Part shown: positions 4 through 5,410 of the stretch, piece after piece | How the letters are laid out: each line of letters starts with the position of its first letter | Position numbering within the stretch: position 1 is the stretch's first letter | Notes under the pieces: generated by a model | Told to the model about the DNA's origin: nothing | Databases searched by the model: none | The model's input: only the letters and a program-made list of their open reading frames with translations | Translations under genes and position numbers: made by a program | Source: a virus | Strand: one strand, 5' to 3' | Virus genome (UHGV): UHGV-0213104 | DNA: 5,419 nt

Positions 4-339
4 ATGAAATATCCAAAATATCACACACCATTTTCAAACATGAAAGGTGTAGAAATGACAGAAGGTGAAACAATTGAAACAAAAGTAAGAAGAATTGTAG
101 AGGAAAAAGAACCAATTAGCGATACAGCACCAATTATCTATACAAATAGAGCGGACGGTGTAATAGCAGGCTATAACATCAGAACAGATAGATTTGATAT
201 AGCATTATCAGCAATGGATACAGTAAACAAAGCCAAGATTGCAACAAGAAACGGGAAGAACAAAGTAGAGGAATCCGATTCAAATAAAGAAATAGAATCG
301 AATACCGATATGCAAGCAGGAGAGACAAATGTTGCATAA
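4..339 (+). CDS. Hypothetical small protein (ORF1), function unknown. It may be 5'-partial, or may start right after the VP1 stop if the genome is circular.
   Basis: 111-aa ORF. Its ATG at 4 lies in the same (A)nCAATTATGA context as the other gene starts. It sits immediately upstream of the VP2-like gene. It contains a conserved-looking core, PIIYTNRADGVIAGYNIRTDRFDIALSAMD, that I cannot assign to a named family from memory. Its codon and base composition match the rest of the phage. Confidence 0.45.
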   Translation: MKYPKYHTPFSNMKGVEMTEGETIETKVRRIVEEKEPISDTAPIIYTNRADGVIAGYNIRTDRFDIALSAMDTVNKAKIATRNGKNKVEESDSNKEIESNTDMQAGETNVA

Positions 340-463: not shown

Positions 464-492
464 GAAAATTGTAAATTTAAATTATTAAAATT

Positions 493-1206
493 ATGGCAGG
501 AATGGCACTAGCAGCAGGAGCAGCAGGAGCAGCAGGAACAACATTTGCTCAAACAGCTGGACAAGCATTCGCAAGCGCATTGCCACAAATGGCAATGACA
601 GCAAGCGGGGGAATATTCGGAAGTATTTCAGCAAAGAAACAACAAAAAAGAGCACACGCGTATAATCTCGAATACATGGATAAACAATTTCAACAAAACA
701 AAGAAGCAGCAGCAATTAACCAAGGTTATGCAAAAGAAATGTGGGATTATACAAACTTTGAAAATCAAAGAAAACACATGGAAGCAGCAAATTTAAATCC
801 AGCACTAATGTACGGAATGGGAGGAGCAGCAGGCGGAAGTGCTTCAGGTGCAGGAACAGTCGGAGGAGGAGGAAGTTTGCCAGGTACTAACCCAGTAAGC
901 GCAGGAGCGCAAGCCGGGGGAATGACTATACAGGGTGCAATGATGATGAGTGAAATCGCGAAGAACTTCGCACAAGCAAGTAAAGACGAAGCAGACGCAA
1001 ATAAGAAGAAAGGCGTAGATACAGAAGAAGCACGCGCAAGAATCAACTTGATAGAAAAACAAGCAGAAGTAGAAGAAGAAGTAAAACAACTAACAGCAGC
1101 AAACTATTTCAAAGTATTGAAAGAACAAGAGGAAGTTTCTAGAAAGATGCAGAAAACAAACAGGAAAATCTATAAAACACTGGTGTATAACAGAATTAGG
1201 AGATGA
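493..1206 (+). CDS. Microviridae VP2-like minor capsid / DNA pilot protein
   Basis: 237 aa. The N-terminus is Ala/Gly-rich (MAGMALAAGAAGAAG...). The central block YAKEMWDYTNFENQRKHMEAANLNPALMYGMGGAAGG matches the conserved gokushovirus VP2 signature (M.NTAYQR...DMKAAGLNPALAYG followed by a Gly-rich tract). The C-terminus is charged and helical. The start context is TTAAAATTATGGCA. Confidence 0.85.
   Translation: MAGMALAAGAAGAAGTTFAQTAGQAFASALPQMAMTASGGIFGSISAKKQQKRAHAYNLEYMDKQFQQNKEAAAINQGYAKEMWDYTNFENQRKHMEAANLNPALMYGMGGAAGGSASGAGTVGGGGSLPGTNPVSAGAQAGGMTIQGAMMMSEIAKNFAQASKDEADANKKKGVDTEEARARINLIEKQAEVEEEVKQLTAANYFKVLKEQEEVSRKMQKTNRKIYKTLVYNRIRR
1044..1053 (+). other. Candidate Rep nick site (rolling-circle double-strand origin): exact CAACTTGATA decamer
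   Basis: The 10-mer CAACTTGATA is identical to the first 10 nt of the phiX174 origin, which is the minimal ssDNA substrate of the gene A protein (nick after G, here between 1050 and 1051). It occurs once on the + strand. It lies inside the 3' part of VP2 and ~70 nt upstream of the Rep catalytic-domain coding region. This parallels phiX174, where the origin is embedded in gene A. Confidence 0.4.
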
Positions 1207-1753
1207 AAAAGGAAGGATTCATCTACATGGAATATTTTTCGGACAAAATGTAAACGAAGTAATAAAAAAGAATTGGAAATACGGATTTATATACATAGGA
1301 CAATATGTAAACGAAAGGACGATAATGTACATTACAAAATATATGTTCAAACAATGTGAATACAACAAACTATTTAAAGGGAAAGTGCTTTCAAGTAGCG
1401 GTATAGGTGCGGGGTACGTTTCCCGATTCGATTCCTCGCGCAATAAATACAAAGAGAATAAAAATACAAATGAAACTTATCAATTCAGGAACGGAATAAA
1501 AGTAAACCTTCCGAATTATTACAGAAACAAAATTTATTCAGAAGAAGAAAAAGAAAAACTATGGATTGAAAAATTAGAACAAGGATACATTTGGATAATG
1601 GGAGAAAAAGTAAACGCAAGAAATCCTGAAGAGTTCAGTAAGTGTTTAGAATATTATCAAGCGCGAGCCATTGAACTAGGAGGAGCAAGAAAAGAAGATT
1701 GGGAAAAATCAAAATACATAAGAAGGTTAATAAAGGAGAATAGAAGGCGCTAA
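1121..1753 (+). CDS. Microviridae VP4-like rolling-circle replication initiator (HUH endonuclease). The 5' end is unresolved: the frame is open from 1121 but the first ATG is at 1325.
   Basis: Frame +2 is open from 1121 to the TAA at 1751-1753. It encodes KNKRKFLERCRKQTGKSIKHWCITELGDEKGRIHLHGIFF (RCR motif II, HLH at 1220-1228). It then encodes QYVNERTIMYITKYMFK (RCR motif III, YxxKY, at 1328-1342). The C-terminal SSSGIGAGYV...NLPNYYRNKIY segment matches the gokushovirus VP4 C-terminus (PGIG ... LPRYY). There is no ATG/GTG/TTG in this frame between 1121 and 1325, and no motif I (uTLTu) anywhere upstream. The 5' 86 nt overlap the VP2 3' end in another frame. Confidence 0.8.
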   Translation, partial: KNKRKFLERCRKQTGKSIKHWCITELGDEKGRIHLHGIFFGQNVNEVIKKNWKYGFIYIGQYVNERTIMYITKYMFKQCEYNKLFKGKVLSSSGIGAGYVSRFDSSRNKYKENKNTNETYQFRNGIKVNLPNYYRNKIYSEEEKEKLWIEKLEQGYIWIMGEKVNARNPEEFSKCLEYYQARAIELGGARKEDWEKSKYIRRLIKENRRR

Positions 1754-1760
1754 AGCGCCT
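1745..1760 (+). other. GC hairpin overlapping the rep stop codon (AGGCGC-TAAA-GCGCCT)
   Basis: Perfect 6-bp GC-rich stem with a TAAA loop. The loop contains the rep TAA stop. The following sequence is ACCTTTCGG, with only a short T run, so it is at best a weak intrinsic terminator. It marks the left edge of the GC-rich island. Confidence 0.5.
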
Positions 1761-1768
1761 ACCTTTCG

Positions 1769-1804
1769 GCATTGGACGCCGTGCGGAATGCGCTATGCAG
1801 CGTG
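1769..1804 (+). repeat. Direct repeat copy 1 (36 bp, perfect): GCATTGGACGCCGTGCGGAATGCGCTATGCAGCGTG
   Basis: Identical to 2068-2103. It contains an internal inverted repeat GCATT...AATGC with a 13-nt loop, and the 9-mer CTATGCAGC. Confidence 0.9.
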
Positions 1805-2067
1805 TACCGTGCGGCGTGTTTTTTGTCACCTACGGCGACTGAGAACCTAGGTTCTCTATCCTCTCCTCTTCGGTGTATAGCGGGACACAGCTTTTTTGTT
1901 AGTCCGAGGGATAGCTACCTTCCGAACCGTTTTGGAGTCCGGAGTGCACCCGCGAAACAAGTTCGCGTGGTGTGCGCCTTCGGCGATACTAAGGTGCTAG
2001 TCGCTGAGGGGCGAGTTCTCGCCCTGTCACCCGAGAAGCGCTCTAGCGCCGCGCAGGCGCCTATGCA

Positions 2068-2103
2068 GCATTGGACGCCGTGCGGAATGCGCTATGCAGC
2101 GTG
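2068..2103 (+). repeat. Direct repeat copy 2 (36 bp, perfect). It is preceded by a third copy of the CTATGCAGC 9-mer at 2061-2069.
   Basis: Identical to 1769-1804, 299 bp downstream of it. The flanking bases differ (1768 G vs 2067 A; 1805 T vs 2104 G), so the repeat length is exactly 36. Confidence 0.9.
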
Positions 2104-2117
2104 GTAAATATGTGGCA

Positions 2118-2249: not shown

Positions 2250-2280
2250 TTTGTAGATTAAAATAAAACGCTTACCTTTG
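2250..2280 (+). promoter_or_regulatory. Bacteroidetes-type sigma-A promoter: -33 TTTG (2250-2253), a 19-nt spacer, -7 TACCTTTG (2273-2280)
   Basis: It matches the Bacteroides consensus (-33 TTTG, -7 TAnnTTTG, ~19-21 nt spacing). It is the only TAnnTTTG in the window. It lies in the A/T-rich intergenic region ~90 nt upstream of the first gene of the small-ORF/VP1 block. The predicted TSS is near 2286-2288. Confidence 0.5.
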
Positions 2281-2366
2281 TAGTGTGAGAAAGAAATAGA
2301 GAAAATAAAACAAATTGTTCCACGTGAAACAAATAAAATATCAACATTAATTTAAAATACAATATT

Positions 2367-2549
2367 ATGATTATCGAATTAAAAATTAAAAAGGGTTCTG
2401 AAACAACTAAGAAAAAAATAGAAGTAAAAGCAGAAACCATTATGGAAATGATAGAAGAAAAATATTTAGTTGAAATATACAATGAATTAAATAAACAAAA
2501 TTACAACCATGAAGCAGGATACATAATATCAATTACAGATAAAGATTAA
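2367..2549 (+). CDS. Hypothetical small protein (60 aa), Lys/Glu-rich
   Basis: ORF with ATG in an AATATTATGA context, the first gene downstream of the predicted promoter. No recognisable family. Confidence 0.4.
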   Translation: MIIELKIKKGSETTKKKIEVKAETIMEMIEEKYLVEIYNELNKQNYNHEAGYIISITDKD

Positions 2550-2569
2550 TAACAACTAAATTAAAAATT

Positions 2570-2767
2570 ATGGAATTATTTACTATTTATTGGGAATCTC
2601 GAAAAGGAGAAGAATTGACAACAATCGAAGAAGCGGAAGACTTAAGAAAAGCATTAAGACAGGTAAACTACTTCGAGAAAAAAACAGGTTACAAAATTGT
2701 AGGTATAGAAATGATTAAAAAAAATGGAAAGGAGGAAAAAGAAAACACTCTATTGGATAAAGAATAG
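2570..2767 (+). CDS. Hypothetical small protein (65 aa)
   Basis: ATG in the AAAAATTATGGAA context, the same motif as the VP1 and VP2 starts. Charged composition. No recognisable family. Confidence 0.45.
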   Translation: MELFTIYWESRKGEELTTIEEAEDLRKALRQVNYFEKKTGYKIVGIEMIKKNGKEEKENTLLDKE

Positions 2768-2981
2768 AGAATTTAAAACATATGGGAAAATGAAAGAATA
2801 CGCATTTTTCCATATGCATAAAGGAGAATCGGAAAGAGCCGATATGATAAACGAAGATGGAGAGATTGAAAAAATCTATCTAATCGAACGAACTGATAGA
2901 CGTGTAATTATAAAGACGGTTAAAGATTACAAAAAAGAACAAATCGAAAAAGAAAACCAAAAACAGTTAAATTTATGGTAA
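2724..2981 (+). CDS. Hypothetical small protein (85 aa from ATG 2724; alternative start at ATG 2790 gives 63 aa)
   Basis: ORF overlapping the 3' end of the previous gene in another frame. The stop TAA at 2979-2981 overlaps the next start (ATGGTAA). The N-terminus is basic (MERRKKK). Confidence 0.35.
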   Translation: MERRKKKTLYWIKNREFKTYGKMKEYAFFHMHKGESERADMINEDGEIEKIYLIERTDRRVIIKTVKDYKKEQIEKENQKQLNLW

Positions 2982-3178
2982 CAAAAACAAAAAAAGAAAT
3001 ATGGATTTTAATATTAAAGATTATTGCGGCAATCGCCGCTGCAATCTTAGGAGTACTAGGAGTACAGAGCTGTACAATGAGTATGAGTATTGCAAAAAAT
3101 AATAACAACGCTACGCAGCAAACAGAGCAAAAAGCTACTAGCGAAGTAAAAAATGATAGTATTAACTTAAAATTTTAA
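2975..3178 (+). CDS. Small membrane or lipoprotein-like peptide (67 aa). Candidate lysis (amurin-like) or superinfection-exclusion protein.
   Basis: N-terminus MVTKTKKE is followed by a 22-residue hydrophobic segment IWILILKIIAAIAAAILGVLGV, then QSC, a loose lipobox-like V-Q-S-C, then a polar Asn/Gln-rich tail. The start is translationally coupled to the upstream ORF (ATGGTAA). It is located just before the scaffold-like and capsid genes. Confidence 0.5.
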   Translation: MVTKTKKEIWILILKIIAAIAAAILGVLGVQSCTMSMSIAKNNNNATQQTEQKATSEVKNDSINLKF

Positions 3179-3182
3179 AATT

Positions 3183-3476
3183 ATGACAGAAAGAGAACAT
3201 GAAGTTAAAAAGCTGTTTCAAATCATCAGAACAACAACACATGAGGAACAAGAAGAATATGTAATCGTAATTGGAAAACATCTAGCAACAGAGGCAAAAT
3301 TTTCATCAAGAGAAGAGGCAGAAGAGTTCATAGAATCAAAAGATTATGACTTAATTTGGGCATTAATTGCTGCATTAATTGATGCAAAAGACGCCGAAGA
3401 AATGGAAGTACAACAAGAAAAAGATATACAAGAAGTAGAAGAAGCAATCCAAAAACAAACCATTAAAGATTTATAA
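3183..3476 (+). CDS. Small highly acidic protein (97 aa). Candidate scaffolding protein (VP3-like).
   Basis: Very Glu/Asp-rich with predicted helical character. The start context is TTAAAATTATGAC. Its stop TAA (3474-3476) is 2 nt before the VP1 ATG (3479), i.e. a tightly coupled scaffold-then-capsid arrangement. Confidence 0.5.
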   Translation: MTEREHEVKKLFQIIRTTTHEEQEEYVIVIGKHLATEAKFSSREEAEEFIESKDYDLIWALIAALIDAKDAEEMEVQQEKDIQEVEEAIQKQTIKDL

Positions 3477-3478
3477 TT

Positions 3479-5410
3479 ATGGCAATTACAAAAGCAATCG
3501 GGAAAAATACGGTCGGTGATGGGAATAAAATGACCGTAAGGTTAAACAATTATTACAGAAGTACTCACGATTTGTCGTATGTATGGAAAAACACACAGGC
3601 AGCAGGTCCAATTGTACCATTCTTATGTGAATACGCACAGATTGACGATACACACGAAATCGACTTGTCTGCAATGGTAATTACACATCCAACGGTCGGA
3701 CCATTGTATGGTAGTTTTAAATTACAATTAGATGTATACGTAGCACCAATTAGACTATATCAAAAATTACTACACAACAATACAATGGGTATTGGGCTAG
3801 ACATGTCAAAGGTAAAACTACCATCGTTAAATATTAACTTAAAAAATAGTGACAATCCAACAAAAGATAATCAATTTTCACAAATAAATCCTAGCGCATT
3901 ATTAGCATATCTAGGGCTTAGAGGATGGGGGTTAAATGAAAATCCTAACGCAGAAGTATTCGCAAGAAAAAACGCTGTACCACTACTAGCGTATTGGGAT
4001 ATTTTTAAAAACTACTACGCCAATAAACAAGAAGAAATTGCGTATATGATTTCAACAAATGGGACATATCTCAATGGGTCAGTAGCTAGAAGCGATGAAG
4101 GTAGTACAACAATAAATGATTTTTCAAAATGGACAACCGCGCCAGCGGCTTTAAACATAACTTATGTAATAAATGTAAACAAAAAACCCGCAAACGGAAT
4201 AAATAAAGCATCACTAAATAATATTTTAATAGAAATAGGAGGAACAGGAAGTTTACCAGATAAAAAAGGAAGAATAGTAGAAATATTAGGAAATCCTACT
4301 CAAGACGATACAAAATGGACATGGACTATAGAGGACGTAAGTAAAATAAGAACCATATACAGAATAACATATCAAACTGAAACAATATTAAACCCGTTCC
4401 AATTGTCTATAATTGACGAAACAAGGGAAAATATATTAGCAGCGCCAAGTACAATGCCGTACGTTGTAAATTCAGGAATTCCATACCTATACGCACAAAG
4501 AGATAAACAAAATAAATTGCTAACAACACAACCCATGTACGGACTAGCCTTAAAAACATACCAAAGTGATATATTTAATAATTGGATTCAAACCGAATGG
4601 CTAGAAGGAGAAAACGGAATTAATGCAATTACAGCCATAGACACAAGCTCAGGTAGTTTTACAATGGATACTCTAAACCTAGCAAAAAAGGTTTACAATA
4701 TGCTAAATAGAATTGCAGTATCAGACGGAACTTACAAATCATGGATGGAGACAGTATTTTCGTCAAAATACGTAGAAAGAACCGAAACACCTGTATACTA
4801 TGGCGGAATGTCACAAGAAATCATTTTTGAAGAAGTTATAAGCACATCCGCTGCGGCTAGCGAACCATTAGGAACACTAGCCGGAAAAGGAAGGCTAGCA
4901 CCAAACAAAAAAGGAGGAAAAATAGTAATAAAAATCGACGAACCCTCATATATCATTGGAATATGCTCAATTACACCGAGATTAGATTACAGTCAGGGAA
5001 ACAATTTCACAATGAATTGGGAAACACTCAACGATGTACATAAACCAGCATTAGATATGATTGGTTACCAAGACTTAACAATGGAAAAAGCAGCCTGGTG
5101 GACCGAAACATGGAACGAGAAAGGAGGAAGAAGCGAAAAGAAAATAGGAAAAACCGTAGCATGGATTGACTACATGACAAATTATAACAAGAATTACGGA
5201 AACTTTGCAAGCGGAGAAAATGAAAACTTTATGGTTCTAGACAGAAACTACAACATAGAAACAAAAGATTTTACAACCTACATAGACCCTGCAAAGTATA
5301 ACGGAATCTTCGCAGACCAAAGTCGCTCAGCCATGAATTTCTGGATACAAATCGGTGTAGATTGGAAAGTAAGAAGAAAAATAAGCGCAAAATCAATTCC
5401 TAACTTATAA
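3479..5410 (+). CDS. Microviridae major capsid protein VP1 (F-like jelly-roll capsid)
   Basis: 643 aa. The N-terminal region RSTHDLSYVWKNTQAAGPIVPFLCEYAQIDDTHEIDLSAMVITHPTVGPLYGSFKLQLDVYVAPIRLYQKL aligns motif by motif with the gokushovirus VP1 N-terminus (RS.FD.S...KTT..AG.LVP....E.LPGDT...D.SA.VR...P...P...........FFVPNRLVW). It is the longest ORF, with uniform phage-like composition. Confidence 0.95.
   Translation: MAITKAIGKNTVGDGNKMTVRLNNYYRSTHDLSYVWKNTQAAGPIVPFLCEYAQIDDTHEIDLSAMVITHPTVGPLYGSFKLQLDVYVAPIRLYQKLLHNNTMGIGLDMSKVKLPSLNINLKNSDNPTKDNQFSQINPSALLAYLGLRGWGLNENPNAEVFARKNAVPLLAYWDIFKNYYANKQEEIAYMISTNGTYLNGSVARSDEGSTTINDFSKWTTAPAALNITYVINVNKKPANGINKASLNNILIEIGGTGSLPDKKGRIVEILGNPTQDDTKWTWTIEDVSKIRTIYRITYQTETILNPFQLSIIDETRENILAAPSTMPYVVNSGIPYLYAQRDKQNKLLTTQPMYGLALKTYQSDIFNNWIQTEWLEGENGINAITAIDTSSGSFTMDTLNLAKKVYNMLNRIAVSDGTYKSWMETVFSSKYVERTETPVYYGGMSQEIIFEEVISTSAAASEPLGTLAGKGRLAPNKKGGKIVIKIDEPSYIIGICSITPRLDYSQGNNFTMNWETLNDVHKPALDMIGYQDLTMEKAAWWTETWNEKGGRSEKKIGKTVAWIDYMTNYNKNYGNFASGENENFMVLDRNYNIETKDFTTYIDPAKYNGIFADQSRSAMNFWIQIGVDWKVRRKISAKSIPNL

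Follow-up and report, generated by a model that had tools for sequence, protein, structure and literature searches.

A structured non-coding module, probably an RNA, exchanged among gut microviruses

Microviruses are among the smallest and most abundant phages of the gut, with genomes of 5-6 kb that are regarded as almost purely protein-coding, and we know of no non-coding RNA encoded by these single-stranded DNA (ssDNA) phages. Double-stranded DNA phages carry morons, autonomous accessory units that lie between genes and often have a deviant base composition. Single-strand origins (sso), another class of structured element to which the present locus can be compared, must lie on the viral strand in a fixed orientation (PMC5703833), and the sso motifs RSB and CS-6 used below were taken from PMC4598088. 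Here we analysed the microvirus genome UHGV-0213104, a stretch of 5,419 nt that we call the window, around a GC-rich island downstream of the replication gene rep (positions 1744-2104). We read this island as a copy of an exchanged, structured non-coding module, most likely a structured RNA (probability about 0.5), and we take the module, which is probably an RNA, rather than the 36-nt direct repeats that bound the island, as the object of interest.

The module family and its conserved fold

The GC content is 59.0% in 1744-2104 versus 33.7% in the remainder of the window (51-67% and 20-40%, respectively, in windows of 100 nt), and the island folds more stably than shuffled sequences both as RNA (z = -4.3 on the plus strand and -4.1 on the minus strand) and as ssDNA (z = -5.1 on the plus strand). 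An open reading frame (ORF) of 111 codons spans 1772-2107, by accident and because of the GC-richness: the frame is open on that strand in just one of 51 family copies, and 542 of the 551 gap runs in the alignment are not multiples of three (502 with remainder 1, 40 with remainder 2 and 9 with remainder 0). We consequently rejected a protein-coding gene, as the reading frame is not kept among homologues, and the original prediction of a GC-rich non-coding island, made from the letters alone, was borne out. In OP549868, OP549871 and OP549874 (L002 1528-1770; relatives are denoted by L numbers), a GenBank coding sequence for a “hypothetical protein” is laid over the module, which is probably a mis-annotation because the frame is not conserved in the family.

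We searched GenBank phages with the island using blastn and retrieved matches of 76-91% identity in non-coding DNA of other microviruses from faeces or the gut; a second blastn search yielded 27 GenBank microvirus records, most of them without a feature under the match and three with a “hypothetical protein”. Exact-pattern scans built from the invariant core (GGTGTGCG-N7-CGATA-NN-AAGGTGCTAG, plus a second pattern) yielded 22 IMG/VR and 30 metagenome contigs, nearly all of microvirus size, and a protein-anchored scan returned 16 more contigs, 12 of them new. The family comprises at least 66 distinct microvirus contigs in addition to the 27 GenBank records. Its members are non-coding, ~250-280 nt long and take up 4-5% of the genome; the extent of the module in the window was projected by eye via alignments A1 and A2.

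The module always lies in the main intergenic region. In the clade of the window it is always found ~300 nt past the rep stop, and in a second clade, whose proteins were not detectable using those of the window, it is present in 16 of 78 genomes, where it directly follows the pilot gene and in every case runs opposite to the genes. It is absent from all five GenBank relatives of the window clade and from 60 of the 62 IMG/VR relatives with capsids 37-53% identical to that of the window, the other two giving marginal matches; relatives without the island, whose existence had been put forward as a check, do therefore exist. Over the 51 aligned copies, the module has the same orientation as the genes in 29 and the opposite orientation in 22. 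The second-clade genome L010 and the window-clade genome L013 have in common only the 281-nt module (85% identity) and one 152-nt stretch, while L019, a clade-mate of L010, has another subtype; the similarity of L001 to L002 covers 259 nt at 86% identity and ends sharply, and module subtypes do not track genome phylogeny. Judged from these alignments, the module is a horizontally exchanged accessory cassette, found in either orientation among otherwise unrelated microviruses.

Covariance model searches found a single copy per genome with the exception of L041, an 11-kb contig that has two copies of different subtypes (3065-3187 and 9019-9140) 5.95 kb apart and that is probably a heterodimer or an assembly in which two related microvirus genomes were fused. 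Divergent members were seen in L062 (4583-4704), L063 (4538-4655) and L064 (1278-1415), at 58-61 bits, and in L117 (4029-4162), at 9 bits; they retain AUAUCAAGGUGCUA-ACGCU and helix H3 (see below) and differ in the rest, so that the exact-pattern scans underestimate the breadth of the family. Relatives without the core have other GC-rich hairpin clusters after rep (L058 4600-4760, L059 4527-4670, L061 4690-4790), and in L058 the cluster includes GCACC-TACC-GGTGCTAG, which recalls a core that has collapsed. This place after rep seems to be a hotspot for structured inserts.

Outside microviruses, the two scans of 185,579 bacterial and archaeal genomes with the core patterns returned no copy, and a blastn search of plasmids with the module returned nothing, so that the check for identity to host DNA also came out negative. 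We searched Rfam 15 on both strands of the window and 11 relatives, at E-values up to 10, and no family reached its gathering threshold: the best matches on the island scored 17-19 bits (E = 3.7-8.8), none of them recurs over the module in the 11 relatives, and the island is thus not assigned to a known RNA. ARAGORN gave nothing usable, and a search of the literature, sequence strings included, found no description of the element. A weak match to Gut-1 (RF01706) was seen at 1354-1424 of L004 (22 bits, the cut-off being 50; E = 0.05 when 401 nt were searched); it corresponds to the 5' arm of the second-clade subtype, via repeated GUGAAAU-hairpin units, and does not occur in L003.

To describe the fold we aligned the 51 distinct copies and then 66 copies to a covariance model of the 3' domain (R1), which is near-invariant in sequence and contains four helices, H1-H4 (Table 1). 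Over the 66 copies, 97.6% of the cells in these helices are paired and both sides have changed in 14 of 25 pairs (262 cells), giving a covariation score of 0.414. Shuffles gave 0.129, and not one of 500 came up to 0.414; with slid partners the score was 0.074 or less. Even the near-invariant CACC/GGUG part of H1 has rare compensatory changes. The four helices are strongly supported. Between them lie ~60 nt of invariant sequence (including GUGGUGUGCG and CGAUAUCAAGGUGCUAGNCGCUAAGG), and because covariation cannot choose among the several mutually exclusive partners with which each of the segments GUGGUGUGCG, AAGGUGCUAG and GCUACCUU could pair, a pseudoknotted or switching core is likely. The 5' part of the module (GGUGUAUAG... 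GCUACCUU) is conserved in sequence, and its outermost hairpins vary by subtype. Such an invariant multi-helix core would be an indirect hint of a self-cleaving ribozyme or another catalytic RNA.

Of the chain of hairpins noticed in the original prediction, those at 1745-1760, 1841-1856, 1945-1975, 1975-1986 and 2009-2024 were all found in the fold, and the last three are the covarying H1, H2 and H3. The hairpin at 2046-2060, however, is only partly conserved, H4 being its conserved alternative, and the long-range pairing proposed between 1996-2004 and 2038-2047 is not kept in relatives.

Borders, direct repeats and genome setting of the window

The two copies of the 36-nt repeat are perfectly identical and 299 nt apart, as claimed, and sit at the similarity borders of the module. 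Copy 1 holds the left arm and the loop of the 18-bp hairpin of a terminator-like element, which was derived from the fold, a scan having detected part of it. A GC-rich hairpin followed by a T/U run, the hallmark of an intrinsic terminator, occurs only in this flank (1776-1824) and not in the module itself, and this predicted hairpin with its T6 tract is a plausible terminator for the rep transcript. Flanking repeats longer than 14 nt were seen at no other locus of the family; we scanned for the 36-mer and both of its halves and found none in the other microviruses examined, nor any empty site with a single copy. Matches to an 18-mer half lay in an unrelated gene of GC-rich phages and were discarded. 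A CRISPR array or CRISPR-like repeat was rejected (two copies 299 nt apart, with no matches of the 36-mer elsewhere), as was a ToxI-like or CRISPR-like 36-mer, because the copies are neither tandem nor conserved. The suggestion that the repeats are a duplicated Rep-binding origin, allowing release of a ~300-nt minicircle, found no support, because the 36-mer is conserved in no relative.

The first 9-12 nt of the 36-mer are part of a 16-nt border motif (CCTTGCGGCATTGGAC-like), which we take to be the native 3' end of the module because it lies at the same offset from the core (+70 to +73) in L012, L019, L039 and L044; only the window, in the whole family, has a copy of this motif 5' of the module. 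Similarity of the flanks extends degenerately over a further ~22 nt, with 79-85% identity between 1747-1761, which is the rep-stop hairpin plus TA, and 2038-2063, which is the terminal hairpin of the module plus TA. From the similarity to the rep-stop hairpin and the native 3' motif we infer a partial tandem duplication that covers ~60 nt at a period of ~299 nt. In this event, ~60 nt of the 3' end of the module (terminal hairpin, border motif and linker) would have been duplicated upstream, abutting the rep stop, with 36 nt still or again identical; the simplest origin would be template switching, or short-patch conversion, from one copy of the border motif to another. On this comparison, the 36-nt repeats are best seen as a secondary event of this genome only.

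The octamer CTATGCAG is ~30-fold enriched at module borders, always on the strand of the module, and may be a recombination or nicking site. The octamer and its variants CCGTGCGG and CCATGCGG were observed at the borders in L002, L005, L009-L012, L015, L018, L021, L027, L031, L039 and L052, and in L010, L027 and L056 the octamer forms an inverted-repeat hairpin. Palindromic AT/GC motifs (e.g. CACGCACGCATAATGCGCGCACGTATAATTGC), which are Xer/dif-like, were seen just past the module in L001 (1740-1775) and L021 (~3580-3615); some Bacteroidota microviruses exist as proviruses (PMC3091885). The GC-rich flank of the module is itself repetitive and differs among genomes, and L012 has an 18-nt tandem array (ATGCAGCGTGCAGGCGCC, 2.3 copies) between rep and the module (3568-3609).

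A rival reading is a selfish mobile DNA cassette: a circle of ~260-300 nt would be excised and inserted by a nicking or recombining enzyme, either Rep of the phage or a recombinase of the host, that acts at the CTATGCAG-type border motif, and the structure inside the cassette would serve the cassette's own transfer. Sharp borders between unrelated genomes, both orientations, a sporadic distribution, a GC content foreign to the genome and the enrichment of the octamer on the module's strand all agree with such a cassette, as do the short direct repeats at both ends in L001 (CGACTACA) and the window (CTATGCAGC) and the joining of 3'-end sequence to 5'-flank sequence in the 36-mer of the window. 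We nevertheless consider it doubtful: there is one copy per genome (bar the 11-kb contig, likely two genomes joined), its intergenic region does not vary, and the bacterial genomes scanned have none; conservation is highest inside the module rather than at its ends; no empty site with a single motif copy and no enzyme was found; and Rep acts on one strand only. A miniature inverted-repeat transposable element or a transposon of the IS200/IS605 type does not agree with the single copy and the lack of matches in bacterial genomes, and the scan of the whole window reported no inverted repeat within the island. The short direct repeats at the borders leave another mobility mechanism open.

Among the hypotheses originally put forward, an acquired structured non-coding RNA or small insertion with duplicated ends came closest: the covarying fold, the sporadic distribution and the sharp borders agree with it, but the module is not a fresh insertion in the window, because relatives of its clade carry it at the same place after rep.

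Table 1. Features of the window, in order of position
Feature	Position	Strand	Remarks
Small ORF	4-339	+	
Pilot gene	493-1206	+	
Rep C-terminal fragment	1121-1753	+	residues ~96-307 of Rep of relatives; tblastn with Rep of L002, L059 and L062; ORF list
GC hairpin GGCGC-TAAA-GCGCC over the rep stop codon	1745-1760		terminator-like on the minus strand; degenerate copy of the terminal hairpin of the module
Upstream extra copy of the 16-nt border motif (CCTTTCGGCATTGGAC)	1762-1777	+	
36-nt direct repeat, copy 1	1769-1804	+	
Terminator-like element	1776-1824	+	18-bp hairpin, 1776-1794 with 1799-1817, two G.U on the plus strand, then T6
Border octamer/nonamer CTATGCAGC	1793-1801; 2061-2069; 2092-2100	+	first at the hairpin tip, third in repeat copy 2
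Two peripheral module hairpins	1825-1839; 1841-1856		A.C mismatch on the plus strand in the first
Conserved structured module	1826-2076		borders are cross-clade similarity edges (L001/L002, L010/L013)
5' domain (GGTGTATAGCGGGA ... GCTACCTT ...)	1872-1944		sequence conserved
Near-invariant 3' domain	1936-2061	+	model R1, 106.9 bits; ~125 nt
Helix H1	1945-1955 with 1963-1974		covariation
Helix H2	1975-1978 with 1982-1985		covariation
Invariant junction	1986-2008		within the 3' domain
Helix H3	2009-2014 with 2019-2024		covariation
Helix H4	2038-2041 with 2051-2054		covariation
Native 3' border motif CCTATGCAGCATTGGAC	2060-2076	+	contains CTATGCAGC copy 2
36-nt direct repeat, copy 2	2068-2103	+	truncated left arm and loop of the hairpin, without the right arm
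Promoter ahead of the downstream small ORFs, TTTG-N23-TACCTTTG, Bacteroidota type	2259-2296	+	regex scan; box end +297 from the core
Five small ORFs	within 2367-3476	+	
Capsid gene	3479-5410	+	

The window is a circularly permuted microvirus genome with every gene on the plus strand. According to the ORF list, its Rep fragment has no start codon upstream of 1325, and by comparison with relatives it lacks ~96 N-terminal residues, motif 1 included; the pilot protein aligns only to residues ~5-185 of ~375, its C-terminal half being gone. The deletion junction lies near 1056-1130, in the stretch 1056-1206, the affected span is 493-1753, and the genome is ~600-850 nt shorter than those of relatives. 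By these signs the window genome is, in our judgement, a deletion derivative or a mis-assembly, and the 36-nt repeat may for that reason belong to a rearrangement-prone defective lineage. The closest relatives by capsid protein are at best 53-63% identical, which makes a comparison at strain level impossible.

The same large deletion, with its losses from Rep and from the pilot protein, speaks for an artefact, with a chimeric assembly or captured host DNA as its source and a repeat made by the assembler; exact-protein look-ups for the window genome found no identical proteins on record and so offer no cross-check of the contig. This explanation is nonetheless highly improbable, as homologous modules occupy this position in GenBank genomes and in dozens of assemblies made independently, no host match was found, and an internal 36-nt repeat with copies 299 nt apart is not a typical end-overlap artefact.

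A common start context, TTAAA(N)TT(N)TAAAATTATG(G/A)CA, was observed at three genes of the window (477-498, 3167-3188 and 3463-3484) and is probably a shared translation-initiation signal. Promoters of Bacteroidota follow the consensus TTTG ... TAnnTTTG; a canonical promoter of this type lies at +161 from the core in at least 17 relatives. Its presence upstream of the small ORFs points to Bacteroidota as hosts of both clades.

Which molecule and which strand may act

According to our preferred reading, the module folds within one strand into a variable 5' part and a near-invariant 3' domain of 125 nt, with four helices and conserved unpaired joints. It is a cassette carried by some gut microvirus lineages, with hosts that are probably Bacteroidota, and recombination has moved it either way round. 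A structured RNA would be made from the double-stranded replicative form, for instance as a stable RNA that acts in trans by binding a factor of the host or the virus, and the module would probably not act as a structure in packaged DNA. The comparisons show a family with a conserved structure, its distribution, its two orientations, its passage between clades and its lack in the bacterial genomes scanned; we infer from them an RNA as the active molecule, as well as its strand and what it may bind. A structured RNA is the most economical choice, since RNA alone can be produced from either strand of the DNA.

Several observations weigh against this reading. No canonical Bacteroidota promoter leads into the module on the aligned strand in any genome, and the complementary strand has only weak -7-like boxes near it; matches to TTTG...TAnnTTTG were rejected as module promoters, because they serve viral genes and those on the minus strand, at +205, fall within coding regions. 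Nearly all pairs of the helices are Watson-Crick, and the variable positions contain ~33 A.C cells (at least 10 events) versus 2-4 G.U, in both orientation groups. This excess of A.C is unusual for an RNA of the plus strand and would fit the complementary strand or a constraint at the level of DNA: read on the complementary strand, A.C is G.U, so that the selected strand may be the minus strand of the window. Folding energies, by contrast, lean slightly towards the plus strand (40 of 51 copies), and neither strand has the better consensus fold. In the window, moreover, a terminator-like hairpin stands between rep and the module, the genome looks defective, and the repeat could be a replication or assembly error without biological meaning.

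If the complementary strand were the active one, the module of the second clade would belong to the late operon's 3' untranslated end, where, on that strand, a hairpin and a U-rich tract were seen by eye after the module; in the window clade it would form an antisense unit convergent with rep. Another reading is a purely cis-acting transcript-end element, namely a 3' untranslated stabiliser, a processing site or a bidirectional terminator block of an operon that ends in the main intergenic region. Its place directly after the pilot stop and before that hairpin and U-rich tract in the second clade, its place after rep in the window clade and the terminator-like hairpins that flank it speak for such an element. 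We regard this as quite improbable, however, since ~60 nt of invariant unpaired sequence and a multi-helix fold go far beyond the demands of termination or protection of a 3' end, one of the two clades has the conserved polarity antisense to its operon, and the majority of relatives manage without the module.

The original prediction had favoured a complementary-strand origin. In a fuller form of this reading, host RNA polymerase, primase or PriA would recognise the folded viral ssDNA and begin synthesis of the minus strand there, and lineages would differ in which of several interchangeable origin cassettes they carry. The phage genome is ssDNA and the module lies in the main intergenic region beside rep; the helices are nearly strictly Watson-Crick, with a z of -5.1 for the DNA fold; the other GC-rich hairpin clusters at this site in relatives without the core are what would be expected of alternative origins, and those sites could conceivably hold a different type of origin. 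Conserved intergenic hairpins of microviruses are also usually read in this way (PMC9865509), and plasmid sso are exchangeable cassettes of ~160 nt (PMC5703833). On the other side, an sso functions in one orientation only (PMC5703833), but the module is found in both (29 same, 22 opposite); the mismatch bias is equal in both orientation groups, with A.C on the plus strand in the window clade, the helices of the window itself included; and the RSB motif is absent, with no TAGCGW in the island of the window. An origin of this kind is thus disfavoured and in our view unlikely, because the module keeps the same polarity on either strand and most relatives do without it. An essential complementary-strand origin of the phiX174/G4 type, which should occur in every viable relative and on a fixed strand, does not agree with the absence of the module from 5 of 5 GenBank relatives, 60 of 62 IMG/VR relatives and 62 of 78 second-clade genomes.

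Returning to the reading as a structured RNA, a more specific form of it, which we put forward tentatively and at well below even odds, is that the family represents a new class of phage-borne RNA genes in ssDNA microviruses, each a self-contained cassette that passes between unrelated genomes, is bounded by a CTATGCAG-type motif for recombination or nicking, and acts in trans on a conserved component of the host or the virus, for instance as a defence decoy or a ribozyme. The 1.2-unit arrangement of the window would then be the footprint of a circular or tandem transfer intermediate.

Significance and comparison with known systems

A folded module that takes up 4-5% of such a small genome is hard to explain unless it pays its way, and its near-invariance across clades with barely alignable proteins, together with its repeated exchange, sharpens the need for a benefit. 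If its partner were identified, this could uncover either an unfamiliar means by which small phages manipulate their Bacteroidota hosts or a new mechanism of mobile RNA or DNA cassettes in replicons made of ssDNA. Neither Rfam nor the annotation of GenBank includes the family, and some GenBank records wrongly call it a hypothetical protein.

Like the orphan structured RNAs of phages and gut metagenomes listed in Rfam (e.g. Gut-1), the module is defined by conservation and covariation, intergenic, associated with phages and the gut, and without a known partner; unlike them, it is carried by ssDNA microviruses of 5-6 kb, occurs in both orientations and reaches no Rfam 15 threshold. With morons it shares an accessory, sporadic and compositionally foreign character, exchange between genomes and a position between gene blocks in either direction, but it is non-coding, and a promoter and terminator of its own are not demonstrable within its borders.

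The ssoA, ssoU, ssoT and ssoW elements of rolling-circle plasmids, the phiX174 primosome site and the G4 oric are likewise structured non-coding cassettes of 150-300 nt near rep. The intrastrand pairing over ~150-300 nt that characterises ssoA is present in the island (DNA fold z = -5.1), a property that does not tell DNA from RNA, whereas the fixed orientation on the displaced (viral) strand (PMC5703833) is not found (29 versus 22), and most relatives do not have the module. A search for RSB (TTATGCCGAGAAAATTT) gave no matches at up to 3 mismatches, and CS-6 (TAGCGT) has no counterpart of the form TAGCGW in the island of the window; in relatives, a CS-6-like TAGCG(T/A) is confined to the complementary strand, where it sits in a junction and not in a loop (PMC5703833, PMC4598088). 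The conserved intergenic DNA hairpins of small microviruses (PMC9865509) resemble the module in being intergenic, near rep and marked by compensatory substitutions, but they are single hairpins of 13-64 nt from one clade, whereas the module is a multi-helix structure of ~250 nt that occurs across clades and is inverted between them.

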